Shown: positions 3,912 through 56,300, counted from the stretch's first letter. The stretch: 64,000 nt of DNA from Candidatus Falkowbacteria bacterium (GCA_037137655.1 JBAXJX010000002.1:229730-293729); one strand, 5' to 3'. Translations and numbers: made by a program. Notes: generated from the letters alone by a model not told the origin.

Positions 3912-4033
3912 TGTTTTCTCGTTTTTCCGAAATCGATTTCGAAAAAAATGGTTTGTTCTAAGTTGGAACAAATCATTGCCTTGAATATAAAAAGCTTTGT
4001 GTTCAGAGCGATGATTAAAATCAAAATAATATT

Positions 4034-4450: not shown

Positions 4451-4472
4451 TAACCTCGTTAATTCTAATTAA

Positions 4473-4907: not shown

Positions 4908-4922
4908 GTCGGTTTAATTTTT

Positions 4923-5369: not shown

Positions 5370-5400
5370 TAATGTTTATATTATTTAAAATAAAAAGTTT

Positions 5401-5850: not shown

Positions 5851-5856
5851 AATAAT

Positions 5857-11967: not shown

Positions 11968-12963
11968 TTAGTTGCTACCACAACTTGCGGCTGCGCCACC
12001 GGCGCTAGTACCAGTACCAAAACCTGGGGCTGGGGAAGCAGAGCTCAAAGCTAATTTACATTCAGCTGGTTGAGTTGTGAAAGCAGAACAAACGCTAGCT
12101 AATAAACTAGCTGAGTCACGACCGCTTTGTGATTCAACGCCATTGATAATCAAGGTTGGTGATCCACCAACGCTATATTTAGCATTGTCAGCTTTGTATA
12201 GATTTACAACTGGGTAGCTACCTTTCTTTTCAGTTCCAGTAGTTACGCTGAATTGTTTGTCAGTTTTTGCTGCACAAGTATTTAATTTAGCAGTGTCAAT
12301 TTTAGTTGAAGCTAAACAAGCAGCGCTATCGCCTGCGCCCAAGAAACATTTCAAGTAAGAAATGTATTTAGGTGTTTGTTCTTTGTTGATACAATATTGG
12401 TTTAATTCTTCTTTTAATTCTTTATCACCATGCATTGAGTAATCAACGAATTTAATTTGAATATCAGCCTTAGCTTTTAAAGCTTCAATTACTGGAATCA
12501 TACCTTTTTCGATTTGAGTACCGTAAGGACAATGACTCATAACAAATAATTCTACAACTGGTTTAGCAGTTTTTGGAATGTTTTGTTGTACTGGAGCGCT
12601 AGCTGAATCAGTGCTAGTAGCACCACCTTTAGTAGCAGCCGCTTTATCCTCGATTTCTTTAACGTTTAAAGCATTTGGGAAAAAGATAGAGCCGTCTTTA
12701 GTGGAGTAAGAATCAATAACTTGACCGGAGCCGATATCGATTGTCATTTTGTATAGACCATTTTCTTCGGCAACTTTTTGAATAGTTGCTTTGCTACCTG
12801 GAGTCATCAAATTATCATTGATGAAAGTTTCCATTTTAAGTTTAGCAGCTTCCGGAGTGATTGTTGTACTCTTAGAAAACAATTTGGAGTCACAACCGCC
12901 GAGACTAAGAGAAACGGCAACAAGAAGTGACAACGCGGAAATACGGGCGAAGTTTTTCTTCAT
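11968..12963 (-). CDS. Lipoprotein with a thioredoxin/DsbA-like domain carrying a monothiol CPYG site
   Basis: Lipobox LSLGG/C after MKKNFARISALSLLVAV. I start at the internal ATG (complement of 12961-12963) rather than the track start at 12999. FVMSHCPYGTQ sits in a thioredoxin-fold-like context, followed by a Cys-containing helical insert and a Gly/Ala/Ser tail. Confidence 0.55.
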   Translation of the reverse strand: MKKNFARISALSLLVAVSLSLGGCDSKLFSKSTTITPEAAKLKMETFINDNLMTPGSKATIQKVAEENGLYKMTIDIGSGQVIDSYSTKDGSIFFPNALNVKEIEDKAAATKGGATSTDSASAPVQQNIPKTAKPVVELFVMSHCPYGTQIEKGMIPVIEALKAKADIQIKFVDYSMHGDKELKEELNQYCINKEQTPKYISYLKCFLGAGDSAACLASTKIDTAKLNTCAAKTDKQFSVTTGTEKKGSYPVVNLYKADNAKYSVGGSPTLIINGVESQSGRDSASLLASVCSAFTTQPAECKLALSSASPAPGFGTGTSAGGAAASCGSN

Positions 12964-13094
12964 AGTTTTTAATTTTAGGGTCGGATTATTTGCGAACACC
13001 TAATAAAATTAATTATAAATAAAATAAGTGGTCTAAGTGGTCTTAGAGCCTGGTGTTATTATAGAGCTTTTTGTGAAAAACATCAAATTTGTCT

Positions 13095-15350: not shown

Positions 15351-15749
15351 ATGAAAATTGGTCTTAAGCGTTTTTCAGTTTTATCATTTTTGTTAATTTT
15401 ATCTTGCGCTTGGTTTGTTACTGCTACACAAACAGTGTCAGCAGCTGTACCGCAATATGGTATGGATACTGTCGGATCAGTTAGTTACGGTACAACCCAA
15501 AGTGGTGCGACTGATGTGCGTACTATCGCTGCCAGGATTATAAATGTAACTCTAAGTCTTTTGGCTATAATTGTCGTGTCTTTGATCATTTTCTCCGGTT
15601 ATCAATGGATGACGGCCGGTGGTGACGAAAAAGTTATCGATACAGCCAAGAGTCGTATGTCTAATGCTGTTATCGGTTTAGTGATCGTTTTGGCGGCTTG
15701 GGGAATTTCTACTTTTGTTATGTCGACAGTCTTAAATGTCGCAAAGTAA
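15351..15749 (+). CDS. VirB2/TrbC-like pilin-family small membrane protein, paralog 7 (unlinked copy upstream of ftsK)
   Basis: 132 aa. Signal peptide ending VSA/A. Module SGYQWMTAGGDEKVIDTAKS: 32 of 35 residues match paralog 6 across the core, and the C-terminal helix resembles paralog 1 (LAAWGISTF). Confidence 0.7.
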   Translation: MKIGLKRFSVLSFLLILSCAWFVTATQTVSAAVPQYGMDTVGSVSYGTTQSGATDVRTIAARIINVTLSLLAIIVVSLIIFSGYQWMTAGGDEKVIDTAKSRMSNAVIGLVIVLAAWGISTFVMSTVLNVAK

Positions 15750-28698: not shown

Positions 28699-28889
28699 AA
28701 GAAAAGATAATTATTGTAATGGAAGAACTTTTTTACGCCTTATCCTTGGCCATGATAGTTTTTGGTGTTATGGAGGCGTTGAAGGCGCGCTCAATTTTAA
28801 ATTATTTTAACCTTGATATCTTGTTGATAGTTTGGTTGGTAAATGCTATTATTCTATTGATAATTAAAAATAAAAATATAAAATTATGA
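28695..28889 (+). CDS. Small two-TM membrane protein
   Basis: 64-aa ORF with 4-nt ATGA overlaps to both neighbours (28695-28698 and 28886-28889), arguing for real translation. Confidence 0.45.
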   Translation: MKEKIIIVMEELFYALSLAMIVFGVMEALKARSILNYFNLDILLIVWLVNAIILLIIKNKNIKL

Positions 28890-30871
28890 GTAAATTGAAA
28901 ACATTATTTGAGCCAAAATCGGTCGCTGTTATTGGTGCCTCTGGTAATCCAGAAAAACTTGGCTGGCAAATTTTAAACAATATTAAAAATGGCGGCTTTA
29001 AGGGTAAGGTTTACCCGATTAGCTTAAAGGAGAAAAAAATCCTTAATCATAAATGTTATACTAGTATCAGTGCAGTTAAAAGTGCGATTGATTTGGCCGT
29101 AATTGTTATTCCCGGAAAGTTTGTGCTCGATGAAGTTAAAAAATGTGCAGCCGCCAAAGTGGCTAACGTTGTGATTATTAGTGCTGGTTTCGGTGAAATT
29201 AATGAGGCCGGAAAAAGATTGGAAACTGAAATGGCGACGATTGCGCGCAAGGCCAATATGCGTATCGTTGGTCCAAATTGTTTAGGTATTATTTCGGCGG
29301 CCGTTAATTTAAACGCGACCTTTGCTAAATTTAATCCCCATGCCGACATTAAACGCCGTAATAACATTGCGGTAATTTCTCAGTCTGGTGCGGTTGGTAG
29401 CGCAGCACTTGATTTTATCGCTTCTAAAAATATCGGCTTCTCTTCATTTATTAGTTTAGGTAATAAAGCCGATTTGGATGAAGGTGATTTCTTTCAACAT
29501 TTTTTTCATGACAACAAAACTGATTTGGTCGTGGCTTATTTAGAAGAAATAAAAAATGGTTTGAAGTTCATGAATACCGTGTCACGCTTGGCTAAAATAA
29601 AGCCAGTGGCAGTTTTGAAGGCTGGCCGCACCCAAAAAGGTGGTTTGGCGGCGATGTCGCATACCGGTAGTTTAACGGCTAGTAATGATGTTATTGTTAC
29701 TGCTTTAAAAAGATCTGGGGCAATTGTTTTGGATAATGTTTCTGATATGTTCAATTTAATGCGCTTAATTAAAAAGCCAATAACTTTGGACAGTTTTGAT
29801 TTTAATATTGTATCTAACGCTGGCGGACCACTAGTGATGACAGTGGATGAAATTTCTTCCGCTGGTTATGGTTTAAATAAGGCTTTGGATATTATTGGTG
29901 ATGCTGACGCTAAAAAATATCAAAAAACTTTAGTGGCATTGTTGGCTGATAAAAAGATTAATAATATTTTGGTTATTCTAACTCCACAAACCAGTACGGA
30001 AGTGGAAAAAACTGCTGAGATTATTGGTCGTCTAGCGAAGCGTCATACCAATAAATTGATCTGCGCTAGTTTTATTGGCGGTGAAGCGGTGTCTGAGGGT
30101 AAGAAAATTTTAGCGAAGTATATGGTACCGAGTTATGATTATCCGGAAGAAGCGGTACGGGCTATGGGTAAATTTATGGAGTACCAAAAAATAGTTAAGA
30201 AATTAAAAGTGTTTGCTGCACCAAAAATATTTTCCGAAAATTATTCTCCAGCTGGTGCTGCGCAAATGGATTATTTAGAATCATTTCAAGTTTTATCTGA
30301 TTATAATATTCCGGCCATCGAAACAATTAAAGTTGATAAAGATAGTTTGGGCGGTATAAAATATCCAGCTGTGCTAAAAGTGGTAGGTAAAGATTTAATT
30401 CATAAAACTGATCGTCAGGCCGTATTTATAAATGTTCCAAGTATGGTTGAAGCAGGGGATATTCTAACGAATAATGAATTGTTAAAAGACAAGGATAATT
30501 ATTTAGTGGCCCAACCAATGGTTAAGTCTGATTATGGTTTAATTTTAGGTTTTCGCCGCGACCATTCCTTTGGCCCGATTTTAATGATCGGCTATGGTGG
30601 AATTTATACGGAAATTTTTAAAGATGTTCAATTGGAAGTTGGTGATATTGATAAGACTCGGGCTATGGCCATGATTGAAAAACTTCGAGTTTACCCAATC
30701 TTAAAAGGCGCTCGCGGTGCCAAGTCTTACGACCTTGATTCTTTGGCGGATATTTTAGTTAAGTTAGCTAAAATTGCCTCAGAACATTATGAAATTAAAG
30801 AATTTGATATCAACCCAATGTTGGCCACACATGATGGCTTTACCGCAGTTGATGTTCGAATAATTATTTAA
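28886..30871 (+). CDS. Acetyl-CoA synthetase (ADP-forming), fused alpha/beta (CoA-binding + succinyl-CoA-synthetase-like + ATP-grasp)
   Basis: 661 aa. N-terminus LFEPKSVAVIGASGNPEKLGWQIL, phospho-His loop MSHTGSL, and a C-terminal ATP-grasp region PAVLKVVGKDLIHKTD. Confidence 0.8.
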   Translation: MSKLKTLFEPKSVAVIGASGNPEKLGWQILNNIKNGGFKGKVYPISLKEKKILNHKCYTSISAVKSAIDLAVIVIPGKFVLDEVKKCAAAKVANVVIISAGFGEINEAGKRLETEMATIARKANMRIVGPNCLGIISAAVNLNATFAKFNPHADIKRRNNIAVISQSGAVGSAALDFIASKNIGFSSFISLGNKADLDEGDFFQHFFHDNKTDLVVAYLEEIKNGLKFMNTVSRLAKIKPVAVLKAGRTQKGGLAAMSHTGSLTASNDVIVTALKRSGAIVLDNVSDMFNLMRLIKKPITLDSFDFNIVSNAGGPLVMTVDEISSAGYGLNKALDIIGDADAKKYQKTLVALLADKKINNILVILTPQTSTEVEKTAEIIGRLAKRHTNKLICASFIGGEAVSEGKKILAKYMVPSYDYPEEAVRAMGKFMEYQKIVKKLKVFAAPKIFSENYSPAGAAQMDYLESFQVLSDYNIPAIETIKVDKDSLGGIKYPAVLKVVGKDLIHKTDRQAVFINVPSMVEAGDILTNNELLKDKDNYLVAQPMVKSDYGLILGFRRDHSFGPILMIGYGGIYTEIFKDVQLEVGDIDKTRAMAMIEKLRVYPILKGARGAKSYDLDSLADILVKLAKIASEHYEIKEFDINPMLATHDGFTAVDVRIII

Positions 30872-32514
30872 TGCTAAAAAACTTTTTCAACAAACAAACT
30901 AACAGCATTACAGTCGCCGCTTTCATGGTGGGCTTCTCTTCGCTGTTGTCTCGTTTTTTGGGAGTTTTTCGGGATCACATTTTAGCTGGTGAACTTGGAG
31001 CCGGACAAACTCTTGATGTTTATTATAGCGCTTTTAGAATTCCAGATTTTATTTTTAATCTTCTAGTGCTAGGTGCTTTGTCGGCCGGGTTTATTCCATT
31101 ATTTTCTAGCTTGATTAAGGATTTTAAAAGTTACAATAGTTTTGGTTTATTTAAATTCTTGAATCAAGAAGCGTGGGATTTAGCCAATAACTTATTAAAT
31201 GTTTTAGTGTTGTTCGTGGCCGGTCTTAGTTTATTAGGTATTGTTTTTGCGCCAACTTTAATGCGTTTAGTGGCCCCAGGTTTTACGCCTGAAGCCCAAG
31301 CCATGTCAGTCTCTTTGTGTCGTATTATGTTTTTGTCACCGTTGTTTTTATCAATCTCAGGAATTCTTGGTGGTATTCTACAATCGTTTAAAAACTTTTT
31401 TGTTTATTCACTCGCGCCAATTTTTTATAACATCGGTATCATCGTTGGTGTTTTATATTTTGTGCCGCGCTGGGGTGTTAGTGGTTTAGCTTGGGGTGTA
31501 GTTTTGGGCGCTTTGTTACACATGGCGATTCAAATTCCGGCTGTGAAGAGCTTAGGTTTTGTTTATCGCTTTAAAATAAATTTGCGTGATGCTAATTTTA
31601 AAAAGATTGTGCGCATGATGATTCCACGAACTATGGGTTTAGCGATTTCTCAGGTGGATTTATTGGTTACCACAATTATTGCTTCTAGTTTAGTGCCAGG
31701 CTCTTTAACTATTTTTAATCTTTCTAATAATCTCCAGGCGTTTCCGGTTAGCCTTTTTGGTATCTCTTTTGCTGTCGCCGCTTTTCCGGTTTTGTCGCGG
31801 GTGGCGGATGACAATAAAAAAATGATTGAGAGTTTTTCTTCGACGGTGCGCCAGATATTATTTTTAATTGTGCCAGCAACCGTGCTCTTTATTTCCTTGC
31901 GCGCCCAGTTGATTCGCGTGGTGCTAGGTTCCGGTGCTTTTTCTTGGCGCGATACGGTTTTAACTATTGATACTTTGGGATTTTTATCGCTCAGTCTTTT
32001 TGCCCAAGCGATTATTCCGCTTCAAACTAGAGTTTTTTATGCGCGCAAGGATTCACGCACGCCATTTTTTATTGGCCTAGTGACAGTCGCCGCGGATATT
32101 ATTTTTTGTTTAACCTTTTCTAAAACTATGGGTGTGGCCGGATTGGCCTTAGCTTTTTCTTTATCGAGTATTTTGAACTTTGTTTTATTATGGATATGCT
32201 TACTATTTAAATTGGGTGGTTTAGATCAGAAACGAATCTTAATTTCAGCTTTAAAATTCTCCGGCGCAGCGGTGGCGTCTGGTTTTGTTATTCAGGGTAT
32301 GAAGAGCATAGTTCTACCGTTTATTAACATGGAAACATTCTCTGGTGTTTTGGCTCAAGGTGGTTTAGCGGCGACGGCTGGTTTGGTTGCTTATGTTTTA
32401 TTGTGTTGGTTATTTAGAACAGAAGAATTGGCTGATTTTAGCGGCGCAATTTCTCGTCGTTTACCATGGCGCAAGGCTAAATTAGGCGATCAAGGCGAAG
32501 TTCGGGGGATTTAA
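30871..32514 (+). CDS. murJ: Lipid II flippase MurJ (MviN)
   Basis: 547 aa with about 14 TM helices. LSRFLGVFRDHILAGELGAGQTLDVYYSAFRIPDF is the canonical MurJ N-terminus. The ATG overlaps the upstream TAA (TAATG). Confidence 0.85.
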   Translation: MLKNFFNKQTNSITVAAFMVGFSSLLSRFLGVFRDHILAGELGAGQTLDVYYSAFRIPDFIFNLLVLGALSAGFIPLFSSLIKDFKSYNSFGLFKFLNQEAWDLANNLLNVLVLFVAGLSLLGIVFAPTLMRLVAPGFTPEAQAMSVSLCRIMFLSPLFLSISGILGGILQSFKNFFVYSLAPIFYNIGIIVGVLYFVPRWGVSGLAWGVVLGALLHMAIQIPAVKSLGFVYRFKINLRDANFKKIVRMMIPRTMGLAISQVDLLVTTIIASSLVPGSLTIFNLSNNLQAFPVSLFGISFAVAAFPVLSRVADDNKKMIESFSSTVRQILFLIVPATVLFISLRAQLIRVVLGSGAFSWRDTVLTIDTLGFLSLSLFAQAIIPLQTRVFYARKDSRTPFFIGLVTVAADIIFCLTFSKTMGVAGLALAFSLSSILNFVLLWICLLFKLGGLDQKRILISALKFSGAAVASGFVIQGMKSIVLPFINMETFSGVLAQGGLAATAGLVAYVLLCWLFRTEELADFSGAISRRLPWRKAKLGDQGEVRGI

Positions 32515-36636: not shown

Positions 36637-36663
36637 AAAAAAGCGGCATCTAGCCGCTTTTTT
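36637..36663. terminator. Bidirectional intrinsic terminator between rnhA and the convergent por-operon end
   Basis: Stem aagcggc / gccgctt (36641-36647 / 36653-36659) with an A-run upstream and a T-run downstream. Confidence 0.75.
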
Positions 36664-36679: not shown

Positions 36680-37732
36680 TTATTTGGCTTGATTTTTTAA
36701 AGAGGTGCAATTGCCACCATTTAAATTATGGCCACTGCTACCACACGCCGCTGATAGTTGTGGGAATTCAAAATGCCAACATTCACTGGCTAGCAAACAA
36801 AAGCCGGTTTGTTCCATACAGTCTTGTAATTTGTATTGAGCGGTTATACTTTTGCCGCCGGTAAGTGGATCAACACCCCAAACGTCAATCGCCTGGCCGC
36901 TGGTATGCGGACAGCGAGTGCCCGGTGTAAATGGGCAACAAGTTAAAACTGAACATTGGGCTTTGGCGACGCAACTAGTCGCGCCCCCACAATTTTTACT
37001 GTAAATTTGTTTTTGTTGTTCCTCGGTCCGAGAGGCGCTGGACACTCTTATTTTGTAACCACTATCTTTCATGCACTTGCTGGCCGCGATTAATTTTTCG
37101 GCCATAGCGGCAGTCATTTTTTGCCCACCACTTTGATCAATTATGTTTGCGTCGCTCGGAAATGTCCAACCGTTTTCGTCGATATTACCAATGCTAACTG
37201 GATCGGTACCATCTTCTTGTTTTTCCACGATCCCAATATTTATCGCTTTTAATCCGACTAAGTCCGGATTAATTTGAATTAATAGCGCATAACATGAGAG
37301 ACCAATAATTAAACCAACGACGCTGCCGTTAATCCACGATTTAGCTGTGTTGATACGGGTGGCATTGCCGGCGGAAGTCATATAGATGATACCACCAAAC
37401 ATAATAGAGATAGCTGATAAGATGCCAATAATTCCCATACTGTAACCAAAAATCGCTCGAATATAAATTGCGATATAAGGCAAAGAACATTGTGTGCTGG
37501 CGCCGTCAACGCTACAACTTGCGACATACTGTTCGGACAGTTTATCGATTCCAGGAATACTGACATTAAGTTTATCGATGGGGTTAAGCGGAACAAATGG
37601 TTTTTTGCCTGGATCGTTAGTTTGGGCATGGCCGATGTTTACTAGAGTGGTAAGGTTTAAACAAAAAAACAGCGCAATCGTTAGTGCGAATATTTTTTGC
37701 TTGGTTTTATTTTTGGCTGGTTTGTAAACCAT
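36680..37732 (-). CDS. Fusion protein: pilin-family two-TM module + C-terminal peptidase M15 (VanY / D-Ala-D-Ala carboxypeptidase-like) domain
   Basis: 350 aa. Signal peptide ending GHA/Q; module MFGGIIYMTSAGNATRINTAKSWINGSVVGLIIGL. The C-terminal domain carries SASRTEEQQ, HTSGQAID (HxxGxAxD) and WHFEF, the M15 zinc-ligand pattern. The start overlaps the porB 3' end by 26 nt. Confidence 0.75.
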   Translation of the reverse strand: MVYKPAKNKTKQKIFALTIALFFCLNLTTLVNIGHAQTNDPGKKPFVPLNPIDKLNVSIPGIDKLSEQYVASCSVDGASTQCSLPYIAIYIRAIFGYSMGIIGILSAISIMFGGIIYMTSAGNATRINTAKSWINGSVVGLIIGLSCYALLIQINPDLVGLKAINIGIVEKQEDGTDPVSIGNIDENGWTFPSDANIIDQSGGQKMTAAMAEKLIAASKCMKDSGYKIRVSSASRTEEQQKQIYSKNCGGATSCVAKAQCSVLTCCPFTPGTRCPHTSGQAIDVWGVDPLTGGKSITAQYKLQDCMEQTGFCLLASECWHFEFPQLSAACGSSGHNLNGGNCTSLKNQAK

Positions 37733-38633
37733 AGCGGGTAATATTTTTATTGGCTAAATCTTGAATGTGAGCCAAGTCTTTTTTGAAAACTTCATTTTTA
37801 AATAAGTGACCAAAGCGACCTTGTAATTTTAAATACTCATCGACGCTTGGTGTTGGTGTTGGTAAATTCATTTTGCGACTCAAAACGCCGTTCTCGTATT
37901 CAAGTAATGGATACAATCCGGTTTGGGCTGCGAGCTTGCCAAGTTTAACTGACATGTCGGTATTTATTTTCCAACCTGGAATGCAAGGGGAAAGAATTTG
38001 GATATAGCTTGGGCCTTTAATGCTCAAGGCCTTTTTAACTTTAGCTGTAATGTCATCCGGAAAACCGGCGGTACTTTGAGCCACATAATTTAGGCCGTGT
38101 GCTAAAGCAATCGCAATCATATCTTTTTTAACTTCAGTTGATCCTGGTACATTGGGACAATTTTCTCCGACACACTCTGAGTTTGGTGCGGTCGTTGTGC
38201 TCGCACCATAAGGCGTGGCACCGGAAGATTGAATGCCAGTATTGGAATAGGCTTCTGTATCAACGCAAATATATAAAAAATCATCGCCGCGTTCCCAGGC
38301 ACCACTAATAAGTCCAAGACCAATATCAAACGTAGCACCATCACCACCGATAGTTACGACTTTAATATTCTTTTTGCCTTGTTGTTCTAATCCAGCTCTA
38401 ACGCCAGAGGCGACCGCGGCCGCATTTTCAAATAGAGAATGAATCCATGGCAAACCCCAAGAACTAGTTGGATAGGCGCTAGTTGTAACTTCAGAGCAGC
38501 CAGTGGCATTAGTTAAAATAGTGTTTTCATCGAGCCCGCGCATAACCGCATGAAGAGCGATTAATTCACCGCAACCAGCACAAGCGTTGTGACCAGGGGA
38601 GAGAAATTGTTGTTTATTTAAAGATTTTTGCAT
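37707..38633 (-). CDS. porB: 2-oxoacid (pyruvate):ferredoxin oxidoreductase beta subunit (TPP-binding)
   Basis: 308 aa. SPGHNACAGCGE and GGDGATFDIGL are PorB/TPP-binding motifs. Confidence 0.9.
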   Translation of the reverse strand: MQKSLNKQQFLSPGHNACAGCGELIALHAVMRGLDENTILTNATGCSEVTTSAYPTSSWGLPWIHSLFENAAAVASGVRAGLEQQGKKNIKVVTIGGDGATFDIGLGLISGAWERGDDFLYICVDTEAYSNTGIQSSGATPYGASTTTAPNSECVGENCPNVPGSTEVKKDMIAIALAHGLNYVAQSTAGFPDDITAKVKKALSIKGPSYIQILSPCIPGWKINTDMSVKLGKLAAQTGLYPLLEYENGVLSRKMNLPTPTPSVDEYLKLQGRFGHLFKNEVFKKDLAHIQDLANKNITRYGLQTSQK

Positions 38634-38667
38634 ATTTCAGTATATAAATTATTACTAAGTTTTATTT

Positions 38668-39807
38668 TTATTTGTGGCAACAGTAATAACCCGAGCCACA
38701 ACTAAGATCAGTTGCTTGCTGTCCTATTCCCACTATAGCACCACCAATACCAGTAACAACTGCACCAACACCGGTAACAGCTCCAGCGGCAGCGCCAACA
38801 GCTGTGCCTTTAGCCACGGCACTAGTTCCATCCCAAGAATATCCCGTTGGGCAATTATAAACACTTCCCGGATTATTCATACAAGTGCCTCCCTGGGTAC
38901 CGCATTTTCCTCCCGGGCCTGGTGTTTTTGCACAACAATGAATATCATTACCGCAATCACTGCCGCCAGTTATCCATTGCTCGGTTTCATCACAGGTGCG
39001 TTTGCATGTCCCCCAATTAGAATAACCACACACTTCACCTTCTAATTTGGCATTGGAATCATGATAATAACAATATTGCCCACTTGGACAGTTTTCGTTT
39101 AGATCACTTGTCCAGCCAATTGGTTTTGGGTTTTCCACAAAACAATAACCGCCACTTGCACCACAAGGTTGACCTTTAGTTATGGGTTGATAACCGCTGC
39201 CAGTGTCGATACATAATTGATTGTCGTTTAATTGGGCTAAACCTATTGCTTCACAACTAACAGGTTTTTTAGTGGCTCTATCAATTTTTTGTCCTTGATC
39301 ATTGGTCGTGACCGCAAATGTTTGAATTGTTTTTCCACAACAGGTTATGGTTTCGATATGCTCGACGGATTGGATTTTTGTTGGCTTAATATTTACCAAT
39401 GAAGTATTGACCGTGCCAAGAATTGTATAAGCGCCGAGCACTAAAAATAAACCAATAATACTTGAGGTGATAAAACCTTTGGCTTCTTCAATCTTGGAGC
39501 TATTACCCTGAGAAGTAATCCAAATAATTCCGCCCAGCATTAACATAATGGCCGCAACAATTCCAACAATCGCAATTGCATAACCATAATAAGCTTTAAT
39601 GTAGTTGATGATTGGGGCGGTTGATGATTCTAGTGGTACTCCGACAGTGGCCGTAAATTGTGATCCTGGGATTGTGACAATGGGTGTGAAAATGACAGCT
39701 GGTTTATCGGCTGCTTGTGCACTGGGAACAATAATAAAAAATGATCCGATAAAAAAAGACAGAGCAATCAGGCAAAATAATTTTGGCACAATAGTTTTAT
39801 GGCGCAT
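38668..39807 (-). CDS. Fusion protein: pilin-family two-TM module + 20-Cys C-terminal domain ending in a glycine zipper
   Basis: 379 aa. Signal peptide ending AQA/A; module MLGGIIWITSQGNSSKIEEAKGFITSSIIGLFLVL. A domain with 20 Cys (hand count) follows, then GTAVGAAAGAVTGVGAVVTGIGGAIVGIG (GxxxG repeats) and a terminal SCGSGYYCCHK. Confidence 0.7.
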   Translation of the reverse strand: MRHKTIVPKLFCLIALSFFIGSFFIIVPSAQAADKPAVIFTPIVTIPGSQFTATVGVPLESSTAPIINYIKAYYGYAIAIVGIVAAIMLMLGGIIWITSQGNSSKIEEAKGFITSSIIGLFLVLGAYTILGTVNTSLVNIKPTKIQSVEHIETITCCGKTIQTFAVTTNDQGQKIDRATKKPVSCEAIGLAQLNDNQLCIDTGSGYQPITKGQPCGASGGYCFVENPKPIGWTSDLNENCPSGQYCYYHDSNAKLEGEVCGYSNWGTCKRTCDETEQWITGGSDCGNDIHCCAKTPGPGGKCGTQGGTCMNNPGSVYNCPTGYSWDGTSAVAKGTAVGAAAGAVTGVGAVVTGIGGAIVGIGQQATDLSCGSGYYCCHK

Positions 39808-39811
39808 ATTT

Positions 39812-40996
39812 TTATTTAATAAATTTTATTTCCTTTTTATTAGTACTTGTTAAATCTTTAATAATTACCTTGACTATTTTTTGACTAACATCGCGTCCGC
39901 CCAGTCCGATAATATAATTTTTAACCACGCCGGAATATTGGCCAAACAGCGCTGCCCGTAAATCCGTGAATAATGGACCATGAGCACCAAGACTAATTGC
40001 TTTTTCGAGCACAGCAATCTTTTTAACTTTTAATTTTTTTATGATATCAGCTAAATCCGCGGCTGGGAAAGGACGGTAAGTTTTAATTTTCAAAATACCG
40101 ATTTTATTTTTATCCTTTGAATTATTAATAACTTCTTTAATGGTGCCAACAACTGAGCCCATCGCCACCAAAATTATTTGGGGATTTTTTGGACCACTGT
40201 ATTCAAATAATCCATTATTATTAGGATTGATTTTATTGTCGTTATTTATAATCTTATTGTAAAGCGTGAATTCTTGTTTAATAGTTTTGATTGCCGCGTT
40301 CATATCTTCATGTAATTCTTCACGAATTTCCATGTAGTCATTGGGTGTTGCAAAAGCACCTAGGGTCATTGGATTTTTGGGATCAAGAAATTCGCCTGGT
40401 GTTGGTTTGTATTTTGGTAGATATTTTTTTATTAGTTTAGTTTCAGGAATATAAACTGCTTCATAAGAATGCGTTAAAATAAAACCATCAACATTAACCA
40501 TGACAGGCAATTTTAAACTTTCAGCTAATTTGTAAGCCATGATGTGTTGATCAACTGCTTCTTGATGATTTTCAGCAAAAAGTAAAATCCAACCACTATC
40601 ACGAATTGTCATGACATCCTGTTGATCATTCCAAATATTAATTGGAGCGGAAACAGCACGGTTAGCGCAGGTAATAACTAACGGTAAACGCATACCAGCA
40701 GCATTAAACAAAACTTCAATCATGAGAAGTAAACCTTGAGATGATGTGGCGCTATAAGTTCGAGCACCGGTCGCTGCCGCACCTAAAACAATCGAGGCGG
40801 CCGCGAATTCACTTTCCGCCTTTAGATAAGAAAAGCTCGCTTCACCATCGGCTTTAGCCTTAGCTAGGTCTTCCACGATATGAGTTTGGGGTGTAATTGG
40901 ATAGGCAGAGACAACGTCGATGCCAATATTTTTAACAACCTCAGAGATGGCATTGGAGCCTTCAAGAATGCGCATTTTTTGTTTAATATTTTTCAT
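39812..40996 (-). CDS. porA: 2-oxoacid (pyruvate):ferredoxin oxidoreductase alpha subunit
   Basis: 394 aa. EGSNAISEVVKNIGIDVVSAYPITPQT and TSSQGLLLM are PorA signatures. Confidence 0.9.
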   Translation of the reverse strand: MKNIKQKMRILEGSNAISEVVKNIGIDVVSAYPITPQTHIVEDLAKAKADGEASFSYLKAESEFAAASIVLGAAATGARTYSATSSQGLLLMIEVLFNAAGMRLPLVITCANRAVSAPINIWNDQQDVMTIRDSGWILLFAENHQEAVDQHIMAYKLAESLKLPVMVNVDGFILTHSYEAVYIPETKLIKKYLPKYKPTPGEFLDPKNPMTLGAFATPNDYMEIREELHEDMNAAIKTIKQEFTLYNKIINNDNKINPNNNGLFEYSGPKNPQIILVAMGSVVGTIKEVINNSKDKNKIGILKIKTYRPFPAADLADIIKKLKVKKIAVLEKAISLGAHGPLFTDLRAALFGQYSGVVKNYIIGLGGRDVSQKIVKVIIKDLTSTNKKEIKFIK

Positions 40997-41000
40997 ATAA

Positions 41001-41267
41001 TTATTTTATTTCCTTTTCCATGGCAATGGCCTTAACTGGGCACTCGGACGCACAAACGCCACAACCCTTACAATAATCATAATTGATTTGGGCTTTAGCT
41101 TTATTATCCGCATTTAAAATCATATTAATAGTGGCGTCAGGACAAAGTTTGGCACATAGAGTGCAGCCGATACATTTTTCTGGCGTCACAACTGGACGGA
41201 AAGTGCGCCAGCCACCAGTTTTATTTTTTAGACTTGTATTTGGTTTTACGCTTAATGATTTTTTCAT
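41001..41267 (-). CDS. porD: 2-oxoacid:ferredoxin oxidoreductase delta subunit (2x[4Fe-4S] ferredoxin)
   Basis: CIGCTLCAKLCP and CKGCGVCASECP clusters. I use the internal ATG (complement of 41265-41267), 4 nt after the porG stop, instead of the track start at 41306. Confidence 0.8.
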   Translation of the reverse strand: MKKSLSVKPNTSLKNKTGGWRTFRPVVTPEKCIGCTLCAKLCPDATINMILNADNKAKAQINYDYCKGCGVCASECPVKAIAMEKEIK

Positions 41268-41271
41268 ATTT

Positions 41272-41847
41272 TTAGTGTTCGTTATAAGCTCGCTTAGCGG
41301 CGGCAATATTGGCGCTGATTATTTTTTCACCTTTGCTATTTAATTTTTCGGAAATTGCTTCGTGCAAGCTATTTAAACTAATCAATTTAGTAAATTTAGC
41401 AAAGACACCTAAAATAGTGGTATTCATAATGTTGCGACCTAAAACTTCTAGCGCAATTTTGGTGGCATCAGTTACAAAAATATTTTTAGTAGCCGGCATA
41501 AAACTTTGGATTTTTTCGGTCTTAATTTTATTGGCAATTTCCTCAGCTGAGGATGAAGTGTTTACAAGTATTTTAGTATTCTTTTTAGCGCCAAATAAAA
41601 TATCATCACTTTCTAGTAAGGTAGCATCTTGGACAATAATAATGTCTGGTTCATAAATATGCTCGCGCACCGTTATTGGTGTTTCGGAAATACGAGCAAA
41701 AGCTTGAATCGGAGCGCCACTTCTTTCCACTCCAAAAAAAGGAAAGGCTTGGGCATAGAGACCACTTTTAAAAGCGGCAATGGCAATTAATTCGGCGCTA
41801 GTGACAACGCCTTGGCCGCCACGACCATGAATTCTTACTTGGATCAT
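41272..41847 (-). CDS. porG: 2-oxoacid:ferredoxin oxidoreductase gamma subunit
   Basis: 191 aa. IRIHGRGGQGVVTSAELIA is the PorG N-terminal signature. Confidence 0.9.
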   Translation of the reverse strand: MIQVRIHGRGGQGVVTSAELIAIAAFKSGLYAQAFPFFGVERSGAPIQAFARISETPITVREHIYEPDIIIVQDATLLESDDILFGAKKNTKILVNTSSSAEEIANKIKTEKIQSFMPATKNIFVTDATKIALEVLGRNIMNTTILGVFAKFTKLISLNSLHEAISEKLNSKGEKIISANIAAAKRAYNEH

Positions 41848-41851
41848 AGAT

Positions 41852-42583
41852 TTATTTTTTTAGTAAGGTTTCGATAATGTTAATAAAGTTTGTTTGTGGA
41901 ATAACTCCTTCATGAGCGACACCGTCAAAATACCAAGTAGGCGTTGCTTTTATTCCAAGTGCTGTCGCATCAGCCATATCAGCTTTAATTTGGGGTAAAT
42001 ATTTTTGACTACTTAGACAGCTGTCGAATTTAGTTTTATCTTTAACGCCAGCTGTACTAGCCACGGCGTATAAATTATTTATATCCAAAGTATCTTGTTG
42101 GGCAAAAATTTCATCATGCATCTCCCAAAATTTTCCTTGTTCACCGGCACATCGTGCCGCCAAGGCTAACTCTAAAGAATTTTGATGACCAATCATGTCA
42201 CGAAAAACTACCTTTACTTGGTTATTGTAGCGCAAGGCAATATATCTGATAATTGGAGCTGATTCCTTACAGAATGGACAAGCCAAATCGGAAAATTCGA
42301 CGATGGTTAATTTTGGTGTGGAAGTTCCCAAGGTGTAATTTCTGATACTACCATCAGTTAAGATTCGATTGTTTTGTTGGCTTAATTTTTGTTGACTTAA
42401 ATATTTGTCTTGGTTAATTTCTACGGCTTTATTATAAACCCATAGAGCACCGCCACCAAGCGAAATTAGAATAATAAATAAAATAACTATAATAAGACAG
42501 CCCCACCATTTTTGGTACCATTTTTTGCGGGGACGATAATCAGCTTTTTGCTTTAGTTGTGCTAGACGCTCTTCGATTCCCAT
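41852..42583 (-). CDS. Membrane-anchored DsbA/thioredoxin-family thiol:disulfide oxidoreductase
   Basis: 243 aa. N-terminal TM helix, CPFC active site (FSDLACPFCKE) and a DsbA-like helical insert. Its stop lies 4 nt before the porG start. Confidence 0.8.
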   Translation of the reverse strand: MGIEERLAQLKQKADYRPRKKWYQKWWGCLIIVILFIILISLGGGALWVYNKAVEINQDKYLSQQKLSQQNNRILTDGSIRNYTLGTSTPKLTIVEFSDLACPFCKESAPIIRYIALRYNNQVKVVFRDMIGHQNSLELALAARCAGEQGKFWEMHDEIFAQQDTLDINNLYAVASTAGVKDKTKFDSCLSSQKYLPQIKADMADATALGIKATPTWYFDGVAHEGVIPQTNFINIIETLLKK

Positions 42584-42644
42584 TGAAAAAAAGCTTAATT
42601 TTTAGTATGATTGAATTATAGCATTATTTGCTAAATAAATCTAT

Positions 42645-43169
42645 ATGAAAAAAGCCTGGCTACTTTTATTTTTGTTCTTGTTTTTTTGTCCATTTTTAGT
42701 GCGCGCCGCTGCGCCGTTGGATAGCGATAATGATGGCTATCCTGATACAATGGAGATTAATAATGGCTACAATCCTTTTAGTTCCTCTACCGTGAAACTT
42801 CCGAAGCGCATTGAAGTGGAACTCAAGACACAAAAATTGCGCTATTATCTTGGTGATATTAAATTGGGGGAGTTTAAAATTTCAAGCGGCAAAGCTAGCA
42901 CGCCGACGCCGAAAGGTGATTTTACCGTGCAGAACAAAAAAGTTCGTCCAAAGTCATCATTGTATAAAAATTTATGGATGCCATATTGGGTGGGTTTAAA
43001 TATTTCTGGTTACGGTATTCATGAGTTGCCTGAATGGGGTAAAAATATTAAAGAGGGTGCGGCTCATTTGGGCACGCCAGTTTCGCACGGTTGTGTGCGT
43101 TTAGGTGTTGGTCCGGCCAAACAGATTTATGATTTTGCTAGCGTTGGCACGAAGGTAAAAATTTATTAA
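42645..43169 (+). CDS. L,D-transpeptidase (YkuD domain) with an N-terminal TSP3-like acidic repeat
   Basis: 174 aa. Signal peptide; DSDNDGYPDTMEINNGYNPF; catalytic SHGCVRL motif. Confidence 0.8.
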   Translation: MKKAWLLLFLFLFFCPFLVRAAAPLDSDNDGYPDTMEINNGYNPFSSSTVKLPKRIEVELKTQKLRYYLGDIKLGEFKISSGKASTPTPKGDFTVQNKKVRPKSSLYKNLWMPYWVGLNISGYGIHELPEWGKNIKEGAAHLGTPVSHGCVRLGVGPAKQIYDFASVGTKVKIY

Positions 43170-50338: not shown

Positions 50339-53300
50339 ATGAAGAAAAAATTATCCGGCGTTTTACTTCTCGTTTTGATTGCATTTGGTTTTTTAATGCC
50401 AAACATTTCTCATGCTACTCCAGCTGATACGATCGGTGGTCCAGTTGCAATTATTAGAAAAGTGACTGATGTTGTTCAAAGTAAATTTAAAGACACTTTG
50501 CAAAAAGTTGGTTCAGCTCTTTTGAAGGGCGCAATTTCTAAAGCTTTAAATAAAATTGCGATTGATGCGGCGACTTATGCTGGTTCTGGCGGTGAAGGCC
50601 AAAAACCTCTCTTTGTAACTAAGGGCTTAGGTGCTTACATGAAAGATATTGGTGATAATGCGATTGGTGATGCCATGGAACAATTCGCTCAAGGCACTGG
50701 TATTAATATTTGTTCGCCTAATTTGGATTTTAAATTGAAAATTGGTTTAGGTTTATCAGCTCTAACAGAACAAAAACGTCCAAGTGACTCAGCTTGTAAA
50801 TTTTCTACCATGTCTCAAAACTGGAAGAATGATATCAATGCTAAATGGGCCGCTTTTCAAAGTCCGGATCTTCTTAAGAATGTTGCCGGATCTTTTAGTT
50901 TAAGTGCTCCAGCTGGTATCAACGCTTCTTATAGCGTGTTGTCTGGTGCGGCTGATACTTCTAAAACAAAAGTTAATGATGCTACTAATGGTCAATTGAT
51001 TGGTAAAGGCTGGCTTACTCCGACTAATATTGGTGGTCAAGTAACAACTGCGCCTGGACAAGCCGAAGCTGATTTAGCCAACATTAAACAAACTCAACAA
51101 GCTTCATTGTTACAAACTACTGGCAACGTCTTTGTTGATGCTGGTAAGGTTTTTGTTAACCAATTAGCGGTCACAGCTTTTAATCGAGCTTTGAAAAAAT
51201 TAGCTACTGGTGATGTTGGAAATATTATTCCTGGCGTAACTGTCGGTAGTGACGATTGGTGGCATAAACAAATCATGGCTGTTACTACTTGTGATCGCAC
51301 CCCACTTGATGGTTGTAATGCTAGTTCTAAAAACGATCAAGACCAAAGTAAATGTTATGCTGGCTACTCTTGTAATTCTGATTGTAAATGTGTGGACGAC
51401 AATGCTGCTGTTGCTAGCACTGATAATCTTTATAATCCAAATGCCGTTAATAATACTGGCGGCATCAAGGCTATTACTCAAAGCTTACAAACTTTTGCTA
51501 AACCAAAATTCAATGTTCAAGCCGATCTTAATGTTTTAGCAAGTTTAAACTCTTGTCCTGATGCTGGCCCTTACGGCGTTGGTCCAACTGATTGTGTGCT
51601 TGATGATAAATTCATGCAAGCCGTGCAAGAAAAGAAAACTGTGGCTGAAGCAATTTCCGAGGGAACTTTAGATCCAACTTGGAAAATGACAGCGGATGAT
51701 AATAAAACTTATCAAGACGCTTATACAATGCGTGATATTAAAATCTTAGGCCAATATCGTATTTTACCAGTTGGTTGGCAACAAATAATTGCTACTTCGA
51801 CAATTAACAAAAATCCAAATATAACTTTGGGCGATGCCATGGCTTGTTTTGATCCTAATGATGCTTATACTAATTTTAGTCCTAATTTTAATTCTGATGG
51901 TAATGGTGATATTTGGTGCCAAGGATTAGTTGATCCTAATTGGGTTTTGAAAGCACCACAAACACAATGTGCTAAACTTGGTGTGGGTAATCAACTTTTA
52001 AGTAAGGATGTTACAACTGAAGGAGTTTTGATAACTCGTAATGATAATTATTGCGCCGATGTTCAAAGTTGTATTTCAGAAAACAAAGATGGTTCTTGCA
52101 ATAAATTTGGTTATTGTACTCAAGAAAAGCGAACTTGGAATTTTGCTTCTGATGCTTGTGACCCAGTTTACAATACTTGTAATACTTATGTAGGTTCTGA
52201 TGGTACTCAAGCTTCTTATTTGGCCAATACTTTAGATTATTCTAATTGTACTGGTAACCAAGCTGGTTGTAAGTCTTATGCGACGACTGGTATTTATAGT
52301 TCTTCCTCCAATACTATGAATTGGGGAACTGATAATTTAAAATATTTTAACAAAACTGTTGGTATTTGTGATGCTGGCAACGAAGGTTGTTCTGGTTTTA
52401 TCCGCACCAATAATTACCATAATTTTTTAGTGAACGGTGATTTTGAAGATAATTCTAATTTAGCTTTTTGGGGAGTTGGTTCTGGTGGAATTTCTATTAC
52501 CACTTCCGGTTACGCCTCAGCTCAAGCCATTGCCTTCTCAACTAACGGTTTAGGTCGAACGATAGCGGTTGGTCCAGCTGATTATAATGTTGCCGATGAA
52601 GCTTATACTTTGTCTTTCTACTCTAATTGTACTGCAACAACTACAGCTTATTTGGGCACAGCTAATAATATGGCCATGAAGTCTCTTCCTTTTTCTTCGG
52701 GAAATACTTGGTCTTATCATTATTTAACTAATGTTTATCCGCATGACGCTGGTACAAACCAAATATCATTTTCGATTATACCAGAATCAGGTTCTTGTGT
52801 AGTTGATAAAATTAAATTGGAAAAAGGTTTGGACTCTTCGGCTTATTCTGAATATGGTACTAACGATACAATTTATGAAAAAATCTTACCTAAATATTTA
52901 GAATCAGTTTGTTATGTAAATACTGGTAGTGCTAAAAATTATAATTTGCAACCATTTGCTCCGGCGATTTGTCAAAAATTTGCAAAAAAATGTAATGCCG
53001 ATGAGGCTGGTTGTGAACAATACAAAGCTGCTGGCGATGCTTTGCCAGTGCAAGCTGTCGCTAAAGCGGCTGATTATTGTACCGCAGAATGTGTTGGTTA
53101 CGATACTTATATTCAACGCGAAACAGCTTTTAATTCTTCTACGGCCGCTAATATCATTCCAAAAACAGCGAGCGCTTGTAGTGCGGCCGCCGTTGGTTGT
53201 AATGAATTCACTAATTTAGATGCTGTTGCTAAAGGCGGTGAAGGCAAAGAGTATTACACTTATTTGCGTCAATGTGTAAAACCAAGCGAAACTAAATGTG

Positions 53301-56300
53301 GTGATTTCTACACTTGGGAAAATTCTGGTGGTCAACAATCATTTAAAACTTATAACTTAGAACTTGGGGCGGTTGTGGCGGATGGTCCAATGACATCGGG
53401 CGCCACAGCTTATGCTTTTGCGGGTAATAAAGGTGGTTCGGATTGTTCGTCTAGTACCTATAAATTATTGCCATCTGATCCAAACTATAATTCTGATTGT
53501 CGTGAATTCTATGACAAGGCTGGTAATATTTCGTATGCCAATTTAGGTCAAACTATAACTTGTAATGATAATTGTTTGCCTTACCGGGTGACTGATAATA
53601 TTGGTGGTGACAAATGTACTTCAATTGGTGGTACGGCGGATACTAGTGCGTCCAGCTCTTGTATCGTTTATGCTGTTCCAGGTGAAGGCCGCACTTGTAG
53701 CGCTGCGGAAAATGGTTGCCGAGAATATAATGGTAACTATGGTAACAATATTAAAATTGTTAAATCATTTGATTTTGAAAATGGGGTTAATCCGTTTACT
53801 TTTGATACTCAACAGAGTTCTGCTAGTGTTGTGCCTGAATCAAATATTCGCGATGGTCATTCTCTTAAAATTGTTAACGAGGGAAGTATTGGTTATCAAA
53901 CAAGTCAGTGGCAAAAATTGACCTTTAATTTAAATCTAGCCGATAAAACAATTGCTTTCTTTAAAGATGTTTTAAATAAATTGAGTTTAGCAGCCTTCGC
54001 CGCCTCAACCGTTCCAGATCATGGCGTGGCCGTTGATATGACCGGCTCAGCCGTTCAAGGTGCGGCTTACACTATTAAATTTTTAGCTAAAGCTTCATAT
54101 AATTCTTCGATTAATATTGATTTTACCAACGGTAAAAACGCCGCTCAATTCTTATCAACTGCGCAAGAAGGAGCTTCGGCTTATATCCCGGGTGATAATA
54201 CTTGGAGATTGTATCAGATGTATTTACCAAGCCTTGATCATGATGTTTCTAAAGTCGAGGGATTGGTTCTCTCTACTGGAGTAAAAGATGTTTACATTGA
54301 CAATATCGTTCTAACCCAAATTACTGATCGTTATTATTTGCTTAAAGATTCTTGGAAGACTCCTGATTCTTGTTACTATGATATTTTTGGTAAATATCAA
54401 GGTACAAATTATAACTTGGGTTGTAACGCTTATGCCGATCGTGATAACAGTACTCATTATTTACGTAATTTCTCCAAGATTTGTGGCGCTACTTCGGTTG
54501 GTTGTGAGGCAGTAGTTGATACTGGTAATAGCAGCGCAGCCACAACAACCCCAAATTATATTTATGCGATTTATGATTCCACTAAACTTTGTGGTGCGGA
54601 CAATAAAGGTTGCAGTCGTTTAGGCCAAGCTTTGTTGGCAAATCGCGATGTGTCAATTCAAAATGTTTATAGTGATGTTTATGTTAAAGATAATCCAGAT
54701 AATTACACTACTCCGACTAAGGCTGGCATTACTTGTTCGTCTGATGCTGTTGGTTGTGAAGAATTTAAGAGCACAGATGGTTCTTTGAATTACTTTAAAA
54801 ACCCAGGTTCAAATACTTGTGAATGGCGCGCCGGTAAAGGTGATCCAAGTAATAAATGGTATCGCAGCGCTTCGATGCGATGTGATTATAATACATCAAC
54901 TAAACCGGGTATTGATGCCGTCGGCGGTGCAGTAACTGAGCAATATAACCGTTTATGTTTGCGGGATACAGATTGTACTGTTGGTGCGACTAAAGGAAAA
55001 TGTATCGTGGATACTAATGATTATTTATGTCCAGTGGAAATGGCTAAAACTTTAGGTTTTGGTGGTACTGCAATTTATCAACCAAGTGGCGCGACTGGTA
55101 TTTGTAAATCGGATGCGGATACTTGTACTGAATTAATCGATCCTCAAAGTGGTTTTATGCCAAATTTAGTTTTGGATCCAAGTGGTTATAGCGGTACGTA
55201 TAAGAGTGATAAATGGAGTGTTAGCACGGCTGTTAAACCAATTCTTGGTAACCTTCAATTCCTTGAGGGACAAAATATAAATCCGTTGTTAGCTCCAAAT
55301 AAACTATATAAGATTTCAGTTGAAGGAGTTGCTCCTCCGACATCAGCCTTAAATGGTGATGTGGTTTTGTATTGTAATGCTAATGTTAAAATTTTGCGTT
55401 CGGATAATAGTTTAACTGACTTTAATCCAGCGACCGACCCTAACTATCAAGGAAATATAAGGGTAAGTGTTGATCAAAATAGCGTTAATAATTCTATTAC
55501 TTTCTATACTGGAACAGGTGACTCTAATGTAAAAAGTTTTTCTTGTGCGGTGTATAATCCAGATAAAGGTAAAATAATTTCTCTAAAAGAAGTCGCGATT
55601 GATTATCAATTGGCTAAAGATTTAGATCGCCAATCTTGTAATGGTACTCCAAATACTGATTCTGGTTGTGTCTTGTTTAACGAAAGAGGTGTAGCGGCTA
55701 GCAGCACGGCGCCATTCGGTCAAAAATTAGCGACCTTGGGTTATAACGCTGGCAAGTCTTATGATTATTCTCGTATCTATAGTACTTGTGGTGGTGTTGG
55801 CCAAGTACCTTGTAACAGTAATTCATTGATCAAAGCCACACCGGATCGTTCTTGTGCAAAATGGTTGGCGTGTGATGATTACGCTTTAGATGGTAATAAC
55901 CAAGTTTGTAGTCATTACGCTGAATGTACGGCCGCAGATGATAGTGGTCAATGTAATACCTTCTTGCAAACATCACCTAATACGGCCCATGTCTTTTCTT
56001 CCACAAATGATCAAAATTCTTCTGGTTTTTCGTTGTTGAATAATTTCTACTTCAAGGATATGAAGCAGGTGGGAAGTGATATTTTTCATCAAGACTTTGA
56101 AAAAGCTTGTGTGAGCGGTGAACAATTTTGTACTGGTCATATAATAAGTTCTCCTGATGATTTAACAACCTTAAAAAAGAATTCACGCGCAGATTATCCG
56201 GGCCATGGTAAGAGTTTTATGGCGGCGGACAACGTTGCTGCTATTGCCGGATTTGATGTAGCTCCAAATACGGATTATTACATTAATTTTTTGGTTAATG

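Follow-up and report, generated by a model that had tools for sequence, protein, structure and literature searches.

A stretch of 64,000 nucleotides from Candidatus Falkowbacteria bacterium (GCA_037137655.1 JBAXJX010000002.1:229730-293729), hereafter the window, contains on its minus strand a cluster of seven genes at positions 36680-42583, in which the genes of a 2-oxoacid:ferredoxin oxidoreductase of the POR type are interleaved with a gene for a DsbA-like protein and two genes for exported proteins that begin with a pilin-like domain. The list of open reading frames (ORFs) gives the order dsbA-like, porG, porD, porA, pilin+Cys-rich, porB and pilin+M15, with junctions, in gene order, of 4, 4, 4, 4 and 34 nt, followed by an overlap of 26 nt between porB and the pilin+M15 gene. 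The order, coordinates, spacing and identities had been proposed by an earlier reading made from the DNA without database searches (the sequence-only reading), and all of them are reproduced by the ORF list and by Pfam and NCBIfam searches. The position between porA and porB is called here slot 1, and the one after porB slot 2. The arrangement is explained best, with a confidence slightly better than even, as a composite operon, ancient among Falkowbacteria-type Patescibacteria, where POR is interleaved with an envelope module that is separable from it and would not be POR-dependent.

The cluster is bounded by two signals. In the divergent intergenic region ahead of dsbA (42584-42644) a candidate operon promoter on the minus strand was read from the sequence as the extended -10 element TGcTATAAT (42623-42615), 31 nt ahead of the dsbA ATG, and a consensus promoter scan finds a weaker site (42651-42623) that overlaps it. 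At the other end the bidirectional intrinsic terminator suspected earlier is real: it lies at 36637-36663, is common to the operon and the convergent RNase H gene, and consists of the hairpin GCGGCTAGATGCCGC with an A-run and a T-run on its flanks, which folds with a free energy of -15.8 kcal/mol (z -3.8). The claim that no terminator lies inside the cluster also holds, since the 9 terminator-like sites found, compared with 8.2 expected in shuffled sequence, are weak and within coding sequence; the scan places none of them between genes of the cluster, and scanning and folding together find no internal U-tract terminator in it. An RNA hairpin over the last codons of the slot-1 gene (38673-38700, UGUGGC...GCCACA), which belongs to a fold of -14 kcal/mol (z -3), was ruled out as an internal terminator, being followed by an A-run instead of a U-run. 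Its role may lie in the processing or the stability of the mRNA, or it may be a mere by-product of Cys and Gly codons.

POR, which stands for pyruvate:ferredoxin oxidoreductase, a core enzyme of fermentation, appears intact in the window. The gamma subunit PorG, also named PorC (41272-41847, minus strand like all genes of the cluster, 191 aa), matches PF01558 (9e-41) and TIGR02175 PorC_KorC (204 bits, cut-off 81). The delta subunit PorD (41001-41267, 88 aa) is a 2x[4Fe-4S] ferredoxin-like protein that matches TIGR02179 PorD_KorD (105 bits, cut-off 60; E 4e-31) and has two CxxCxxCxxxCP motifs. Its start is taken at the ATG at 41267, with a TTG at 41306 as the longest-ORF alternative; the earlier choice of 41267 agrees with the public gene call (ENA ERZ4201038 NODE_1), which likewise has the 88-aa form. 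The alpha subunit PorA (39812-40996, 394 aa) matches POR_N (4e-75), PFOR_II (2e-23) and PorA_Arch (2e-128). The beta subunit PorB (37707-38633, 308 aa), which binds thiamine pyrophosphate (TPP), matches PorB NF008819 (3e-95) and TPP_enzyme_C (4.5e-18); it has the TPP motif GDG...N, with GDG at aa 97, and across six orthologues its cluster-ligand cysteines C18, C21, C46 and C217 do not vary. All four subunits of a POR-type enzyme are present, gamma with PF01558, delta, alpha with POR_N and domain II, and beta. The equivalog cut-offs for archaeal and Thermotoga PorA, PorB, PorC and PorD are not reached (PorA, for example, has 429 bits vs 550), so that the substrate may be either pyruvate or 2-ketoisovalerate. 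An ADP-forming acetyl-CoA synthetase (28886-30871), the would-be user of the POR product, lies 6 kb off on the opposite strand, outside the operon.

The leading gene (41852-42583, minus strand) codes for a DsbA-like thiol:disulfide oxidoreductase of 243 aa with a predicted membrane anchor, which matches Thioredoxin_4 (3e-25, 89.8 bits) and DSBA (6e-14, 52.6 bits), both exceeding the cut-offs, and more weakly the Pfam family TraF (E 7e-4, under the cut-off). The active site CPFC is at aa 102-105 (nt 42269-42280), and the single transmembrane segment predicted by hydropathy at aa 22-52 fits an N-terminal signal anchor. The CxxC motif is intact in 28 of 34 DsbA-like orthologues, and six have CxxS/T. 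A second thioredoxin-like protein of the window, a lipoprotein coded at 11968-12999 on the minus strand, was ruled out as a second DsbA, as it has CPYG where CxxC is expected and a Pfam score below the cut-off (Thioredoxin_4, E 2e-4).

The slot-1 fusion (38668-39807, minus strand, 379 aa) is composed of a signal peptide, a VirB2-like hairpin of two helices (aa 64-138, nt 39394-39618) and a Cys-rich, beta-rich region (aa 151-379, nt 38671-39357). It matches T4SS_pilin PF18895 (31.8 bits, cut-off 26.6) and, at 2e-44, a family pilin hidden Markov model (HMM) built from 95 relatives. The AlphaFold2 (AF2) model has helices at aa 64-98 and 103-133 and a beta-rich domain with a predicted local distance difference test (pLDDT) score of 70-85 (aa 150-290), and hydropathy agrees; the models of both fusions rest on alignments of 8-10 sequences. 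The C-terminal 229 aa hold 20 Cys in repeated modules of the form CG..GG.C ... C.G..CC. Earlier both fusions had been called extremely Cys-rich; they are Cys-rich (5.5% and 4.6%, vs 1.44% in window proteins), while "extremely" is generous for the whole proteins and describes rather the slot-1 domain. This domain has no Pfam match even at E<=10, no significant PDB match, and only 4 relatives among 1.84 billion representatives. As the signal peptide and the hairpin of two helices precede it, it is predicted to lie outside the cell, and this location, the even Cys count and the lack of CxxCxxC ruled it out as an Fe-S or porE/porF-like accessory of POR.

The last Cys module of the slot-1 protein carries a hydrophobic insert of about 37 residues, rich in Gly, Ala and Val and of GxxxG type (aa 328-364, nt 38716-38826, minus strand), with a hydropathy peak at aa 336-362. 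A comparable insert occurs at the equivalent place in a relative of 656 aa (P0008 of locus L026, 2805-4772), and the insert may serve as a third membrane segment or be membrane-active. At aa 260-292 (38932-39030) the Cys spacing is C-x7-C-x3-C-x12-C-x5-CC, which presumably fits the beta-defensin pattern and is a lead only; Foldseek gives weak local matches to big defensins that are not significant (probability ~0.6, E 1.3). A recent horizontal insertion of the slot-1 gene was ruled out by its G+C content at third codon positions (GC3), which at 0.295 equals that of the por genes, and by the pattern of slot orthology described below; the GC3 of the slot-2 gene is somewhat higher (0.39). Both fusions are named just "pilin" by NCBI.

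The slot-2 fusion (36680-37732, minus strand, 350 aa) has a signal peptide, a VirB2-like hairpin (aa 85-159, nt 37256-37480) and a LAS/M15 VanY-like domain (aa ~190-330, nt 36743-37165). Its pilin domain has no Pfam match at 0.01; the family pilin HMM matches it at 3e-40, 35 of the 39 members of its group match PF18895, and the hairpin of the AF2 model and hydropathy agree. The N-terminus MVY.. is kept in homologues, which supports the start that overlaps porB. The C-terminal domain is predicted to be a LAS/M15 VanY-like metallopeptidase. It has a borderline match to VanY (2e-5), the precomputed record of the protein carries Pfam PF02557, and the motifs SASRT (232-236), HTSGQAID (276-283) and ECWH (317-320) are conserved in seven homologues. 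These motifs contain what characterizes the LAS/M15 peptidases: zinc ligands in H-x6-D and in an H that follows later, the catalytic E of E-x-x-H, and, upstream, an Arg that binds the substrate. A sequence search of PDB finds LdcB/DacB at merely E 0.6-0.9. With the LAS domain of the AF2 model (pLDDT 73-89), the 19 best PDB matches of Foldseek are all LAS folds (probability 0.75-1.0, E 4e-3 to 0.2), the top ones being Ply500, LdcB, VanX and VanY with a probability of ~1.

Mature VirB2/TrbC-type pilins of type IV secretion systems (T4SS) have about 70-150 aa, vs 350-379 aa in the two fusions, which carry C-terminal domains of ~200 aa. Given this size and the absence of virB4, virB6 and virD4 from the window, where an FtsK-like gene (15791-18415) is a true FtsK, they are termed here pilin-domain fusions and not pilins. 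Other parts of the window hold seven short pilins that stand alone and match the family pilin HMM: six VirB2-like pilins of 125-175 aa form a tandem array at 3534-6384, a classic pilin array of Patescibacteria like those reported to be essential in Southlakia, and a seventh is coded at 15351-15749, just upstream of ftsK.

For the comparison with relatives, porB was used to scan one genome per species and metagenome contigs, and 86 loci (numbered here with the prefix L) were annotated, after which redundancy was removed. The genomic contexts of homologues of the fusions were also surveyed, so that the search was not biased towards por. Pilin calls in the relatives are confirmed by Pfam in 84 of 89 proteins, and the taxonomic labels of several metagenome-assembled genomes are unreliable. 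One or two pilin-domain genes lie between porA and porB in 43 of the 47 non-redundant loci that have both, so the interruption is not the lineage-specific accident that the sequence-only reading had allowed for. In 42 of the 43 interrupted loci a pilin gene comes immediately after porA; in the four remaining loci porA and porB are uninterrupted. The dsbA-like gene, for which that reading had asked whether it always precedes the insertion, adjoins porG in 32 of 33 loci, and a pilin fusion directly follows porB in 25 of 69.

In the porB tree the arrangement spans two large clades with porB identities of 53-73%. In clade I, to which the window belongs, the order is dsbA-G-D-A-P-B-(P), where P is a pilin-domain gene, and the operon is convergent on rnhA-recJ. 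In clade II the order is dsbA-G-D-A-P-(P)-small genes-B, convergent on rpoC, and in the basal grade of the tree A-B and A-P-B are mixed. Plain G-D-A-B is the order in L081, an outgroup locus that holds a nuo operon. The junctions are also conserved: the one from porB to a following pilin gene measures <=13 nt in all 26 loci and is most often a 4-nt overlap, and the one from a pilin gene to porB is <=40 nt in 31 of 33. A-P-B stays together where the operon is split (L067 and L084), and two loci found via the fusion homologues (L090 and L095) repeat the layout of the window. In distant Patescibacteria, a lone porB (~45% identical) follows a gene for a PAP2-like membrane protein (L005 6992-7915, L006 4982-5881), with no second por gene within 7 kb of it; the POR genes of these organisms are scattered.

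The comparison of pilin domains shows that slots 1 and 2 hold separate orthologous lineages, as the nearest neighbours of slot-1 domains are slot-1 domains in 54 of 56 cases and those of slot-2 domains are slot-2 domains in 27 of 28. This pattern indicates that the fusion genes are long resident. Among 50 slot-1 proteins 49 match T4SS_pilin and none has another Pfam domain; they have a CC doublet just after the hairpin and a framework of four Cys columns that are at least 90% conserved, and the Cys count is even in 36 of them (p=0.0013), as expected of disulfide-bonded extracellular domains. At slot 2, together with the second position upstream of porB (39 proteins), the C-terminal domains are VanY (6), SLT (4), Peptidase_M15 (2), NlpC/P60 (2), 3D (2), Peptidase_C39_2 (1) and Amidase_2 (1), most of which are recognised families of peptidoglycan hydrolases. 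At orthologous loci the N-terminal module thus stays constant while the enzymatic domain at the C-terminus varies, as in polymorphic toxin systems. No immunity gene was found beside slot 2: in the window the terminator and the convergent RNase H gene come next, and the relatives have no conserved small gene there. In two loci a second pilin gene, with an amidase domain, is preceded by a foreign C-terminal remnant of porB of 70 aa (L011 4048-4260, L012 2417-2629), which shares 67% identity with the resident porB and overlaps the pilin-amidase gene by the usual 4 nt. This remnant indicates that whole cassettes move between genomes together with the porB junction, by recombination there.

The sequence-only reading had described the surface-protein genes as apparently transcriptionally welded to the central energy enzyme, and the relatives do not support a functional weld. 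One related locus (L092/L093) is syntenic, having leuS and xth on one flank and rpoC on the other; it retains dsbA (CPFC), and 6 nt later come four pilin fusions, one Cys-rich, one M15 and two C39-like, plus a toxin-antitoxin (TA) pair, and tblastn found no por genes within this locus. In another locus (L089) dsbA (CAEC) lies amid five pilin-domain genes, with no POR. Three pilin fusions and porB follow ruvC instead of porGDA in L091, and in L094 a pilin-M15 gene is found by rpoC, with no porB. Conversely, dsbA-porGDAB occurs with no pilin gene in L075, L077/78 and L086. In clade II the gap between the pilin gene or genes and porB holds TA genes of HigB/RelE, ParE, Phd/YefM, RelB and DUF2283 type and genes for 23S rRNA intervening-sequence proteins (IVP), so that the gap appears to act as a permissive accessory slot. 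Comparison of these loci shows that dsbA and the pilin fusions are the unit that stays together, and that POR is separable from this unit and the unit from POR. The TA and IVP genes lie in L018, L032, L036, L046, L051, L061, L065 and L073, and the DUF2283 gene has a conserved partner of 71 aa. The locus of L092 (4184-11450) lies on the 668-kb contig Ga0558126_00090 and suggests that POR was lost or relocated in this relative, which would bear on its energy metabolism.

In the proposed composite operon, transcription would start at the extended -10 element ahead of dsbA and run through the seven genes to the terminator at 36637-36663. One unit would supply the complete four-subunit POR (gamma-delta-alpha-beta), and the other, the envelope module, would consist of the membrane-anchored DsbA-like protein and the exported fusions, which have a signal peptide and hairpin in common and differ in their predicted extracytoplasmic C-terminal domains. 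The fusions would be exported by Sec and retained in or targeted to the membrane by the hairpin, and DsbA would add disulfides to their C-terminal domains. The slot-2 hydrolase would cleave stem peptides of peptidoglycan at the cell surface, either in the own wall at pilus or T4SS sites, as VirB1 does, or in the wall of the host, or in both, and the Cys-rich slot-1 partner would be a variable, fast-diversifying surface ligand. The interleaving with POR would be historical and yield co-expression, and it may have been preserved because its disruption would break an essential operon. The presence of dsbA beside pilin fusions in loci that lack POR is the best support for a role of DsbA in folding the Cys-rich fusions and is suggestive of it. 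Of the dedicated oxidative folding proposed earlier, the association of dsbA with the fusions is borne out by the loci with dsbA and pilins but no por (L092/L093 and L089), and the word "dedicated" is not, as some pilin-bearing loci have CxxS/T.

Several observations weigh against the composite operon with its envelope module. The conservation counts describe mainly 80 metagenomic loci that are the best porB matches and represent the nearest clade (53-73% identity), not all Patescibacteria. The VanY score of slot 2, 24.8 bits, is barely under the family cut-off of 25, and its Foldseek E-value is only ~4e-3 with a model of mean pLDDT 62. No T4SS machinery gene adjoins the cluster, virB4, virB6 and virD4 being absent from all 64 kb, and the window genes that were inspected include no recognisable DsbB/VKOR partner. 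CxxS/T occurs in three loci that carry pilins (L007, L015 and L031); CxxC is intact in 27 of 30 loci with pilins vs 1 of 3 without, which is not significant (p=0.053, samples non-independent), so that an intact CxxC is a suggestive correlate of pilin presence at most. Within the AT-rich cluster there are 37 promoter-like hexamer pairs vs 23 +/- 5 expected, one of them an extended -10 candidate (38759-38732) ~100 nt upstream of porB, and the hairpin at the 3' end of the slot-1 gene is stable, though it has no U-tract. The promoter-like pairs and this hairpin, with the 34-nt gap before porB and the clade II gaps of up to several hundred nt around TA inserts, would suit co-directional neighbours that form no operon and have internal promoters for the fusions and porB. 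This is quite improbable: with gaps of 4 nt at four junctions and an overlap of 26 nt at another there is no space for regulatory DNA, tight junctions are kept in relatives, no internal U-tract terminator was found, and a stop in transcription would orphan porB from porGDA. A rival linked to the sequence-only reading holds that the surface proteins are deliberately co-regulated with POR, attack on or attachment to a host varying in step with pyruvate catabolism, and that the interleaving itself is selected. The 43 of 47 loci across a deep divergence, the porB/pilin overlap, which suggests translational coupling, the survival of A-P-B in the split operons, and the pilin genes that stay by porB even without porGDA upstream (L091, L014 and L026) favour such an adaptive coupling. 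It is improbable in view of the syntenic POR-less locus L092, which retains the module, and of the pilin-less dsbA-porGDAB operons; selfish TA and IVP genes in the same gap suggest that insertions are tolerated there and not that the layout is tuned, and any retained gene trapped in an essential operon would keep its position.

A different explanation concerns the function of the fusions. They may be housekeeping autolysins, in which the hairpin is a generic membrane anchor of the clade; they would remodel the own wall, together with wall-binding partners, and be expressed with central metabolism since both scale with growth, with no link to T4SS or host. VanY/LdcB-type carboxypeptidases make the tetrapeptide donors for L,D-transpeptidases, and a YkuD L,D-transpeptidase gene (42645-43169) divergently adjoins dsbA; with murJ at 30871-32514, Ddl coded in L095 and T4SS genes not adjacent, self-remodelling would fit this neighbourhood. 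We regard this explanation as unlikely, although it deserves to be kept in view: one orthologous slot holds varied bond specificities (peptidase, amidase, lytic transglycosylase, NlpC/P60 and C39-like), which would be unusual in a fixed housekeeping role, fast evolution of the slot-1 domain is indicated by its scarcity of relatives, and whole cassettes are swapped between genomes. Interchangeable specificities, extreme divergence and cassette exchange together are typical of genes at a conflict or host interface. A bolder and distinctly doubtful extension takes the hairpin as a delivery or display module, with which the fusions would be placed in or beside a T4SS pilus to breach the host wall, carrying a swappable wall-cutting head, the "missing VirB1", and a hypervariable, disulfide-knotted ligand or membrane-active domain. 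DsbA would then be a dedicated maturation factor, and production of the equipment would be coupled to the catabolic state by its place in the por operon. The composite operon of POR and a separable envelope module remains the preferred reading.

The closest known counterparts of this operon, the por operons of Thermotoga, Pyrococcus and methanogens (porGDAB/porCDAB), share their four subunits with it, likewise ordered gamma-delta-alpha-beta, with the cofactor motifs present here, and those of some methanogens add porEF. The operon of the window differs from them by a non-POR gene between alpha and beta, another one after beta, and a dsbA-like gene that leads. The Patescibacteria, to which the ultra-small clade of the window belongs, account for much of bacterial diversity, and other cells are their habitat. 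Pilin arrays are described from 383 assemblies, and in Southlakia, the one species tested, VirB2-like pilins are essential (PMC10633639; PMC12102498; PMC12857230). In a 2025 survey most Patescibacteria with VirB2 have no recognisable VirB1 (PMC12102498). The fusions have the same PF18895/VirB2-like hairpin as these pilins (PMC10633639; PMC12102498), but differ from the arrays by their 350-379 aa, by the C-terminal domain of ~200 aa and by lying inside a metabolic operon, not by virB4 or T4SS genes; no mention of such fusions was found in these papers. The hydrolases associated with T4SS, such as VirB1, PrgK and TraG of pIP501, are of varied type (lytic transglycosylase, CHAP/NlpC-P60, amidase), as are the slot-2 domains; here, however, hydrolase and pilin-like domain form one protein, and its link to a T4SS is putative.

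DsbA-type enzymes that fold parts of pili or secretion systems include MdbA of Actinomyces, BdbD of Bacillus, and TraF and TrbB, which have a thioredoxin fold, of F-type T4SS. As in these cases, a putatively membrane-anchored CxxC thioredoxin fold is coded here beside Cys-rich exported proteins, but the putative substrates are VirB2-like fusions and not sortase pilins or periplasmic T4SS subunits. Polymorphic toxin and effector systems are alike in their constant N-terminal module, their swappable C-terminal domain and the import of cassettes with a fragment of a flanking gene; they differ in that no adjacent immunity gene was recognised here and in place of classic toxins there are peptidoglycan hydrolases. 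The searchable literature, of which coverage is incomplete, yielded no account of fusions between pilin and hydrolase domains, of such fusions paired with DsbA, or of pilin genes that interrupt a por operon. The kinds combined here, a POR operon, a VirB2-like pilin family and DsbA-assisted folding of surface proteins, are each known.

The locus represents a widespread family in which a pilin-like domain is fused to swappable peptidoglycan hydrolases or to a fast-evolving Cys-rich domain, with a DsbA-like companion, and this family offers concrete candidates for the wall-breaching and host-recognition steps. The por operon is a clear example of how, in a reduced genome, envelope genes and selfish genes can settle for long in an essential metabolic operon, and it cautions that operon membership alone is a poor guide to function.

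Other features of the window touch the cell surface and the strand composition. The YkuD L,D-transpeptidase has a TSP3-type repeat, and its divergent arrangement with dsbA is also found in L010 and L095. A single ORF of 2745 aa with a signal peptide (50339-58576) would code for a giant surface protein typical of such genomes. GC skew is positive in all 2-kb bins of 1-64000 except 38001-40000, which lies inside the minus-strand por cluster; it follows the coding strand, and the por operon is among the few minus-strand gene blocks of the window. A similar strand disparity was reported for Microgenomates (PMC7143001).

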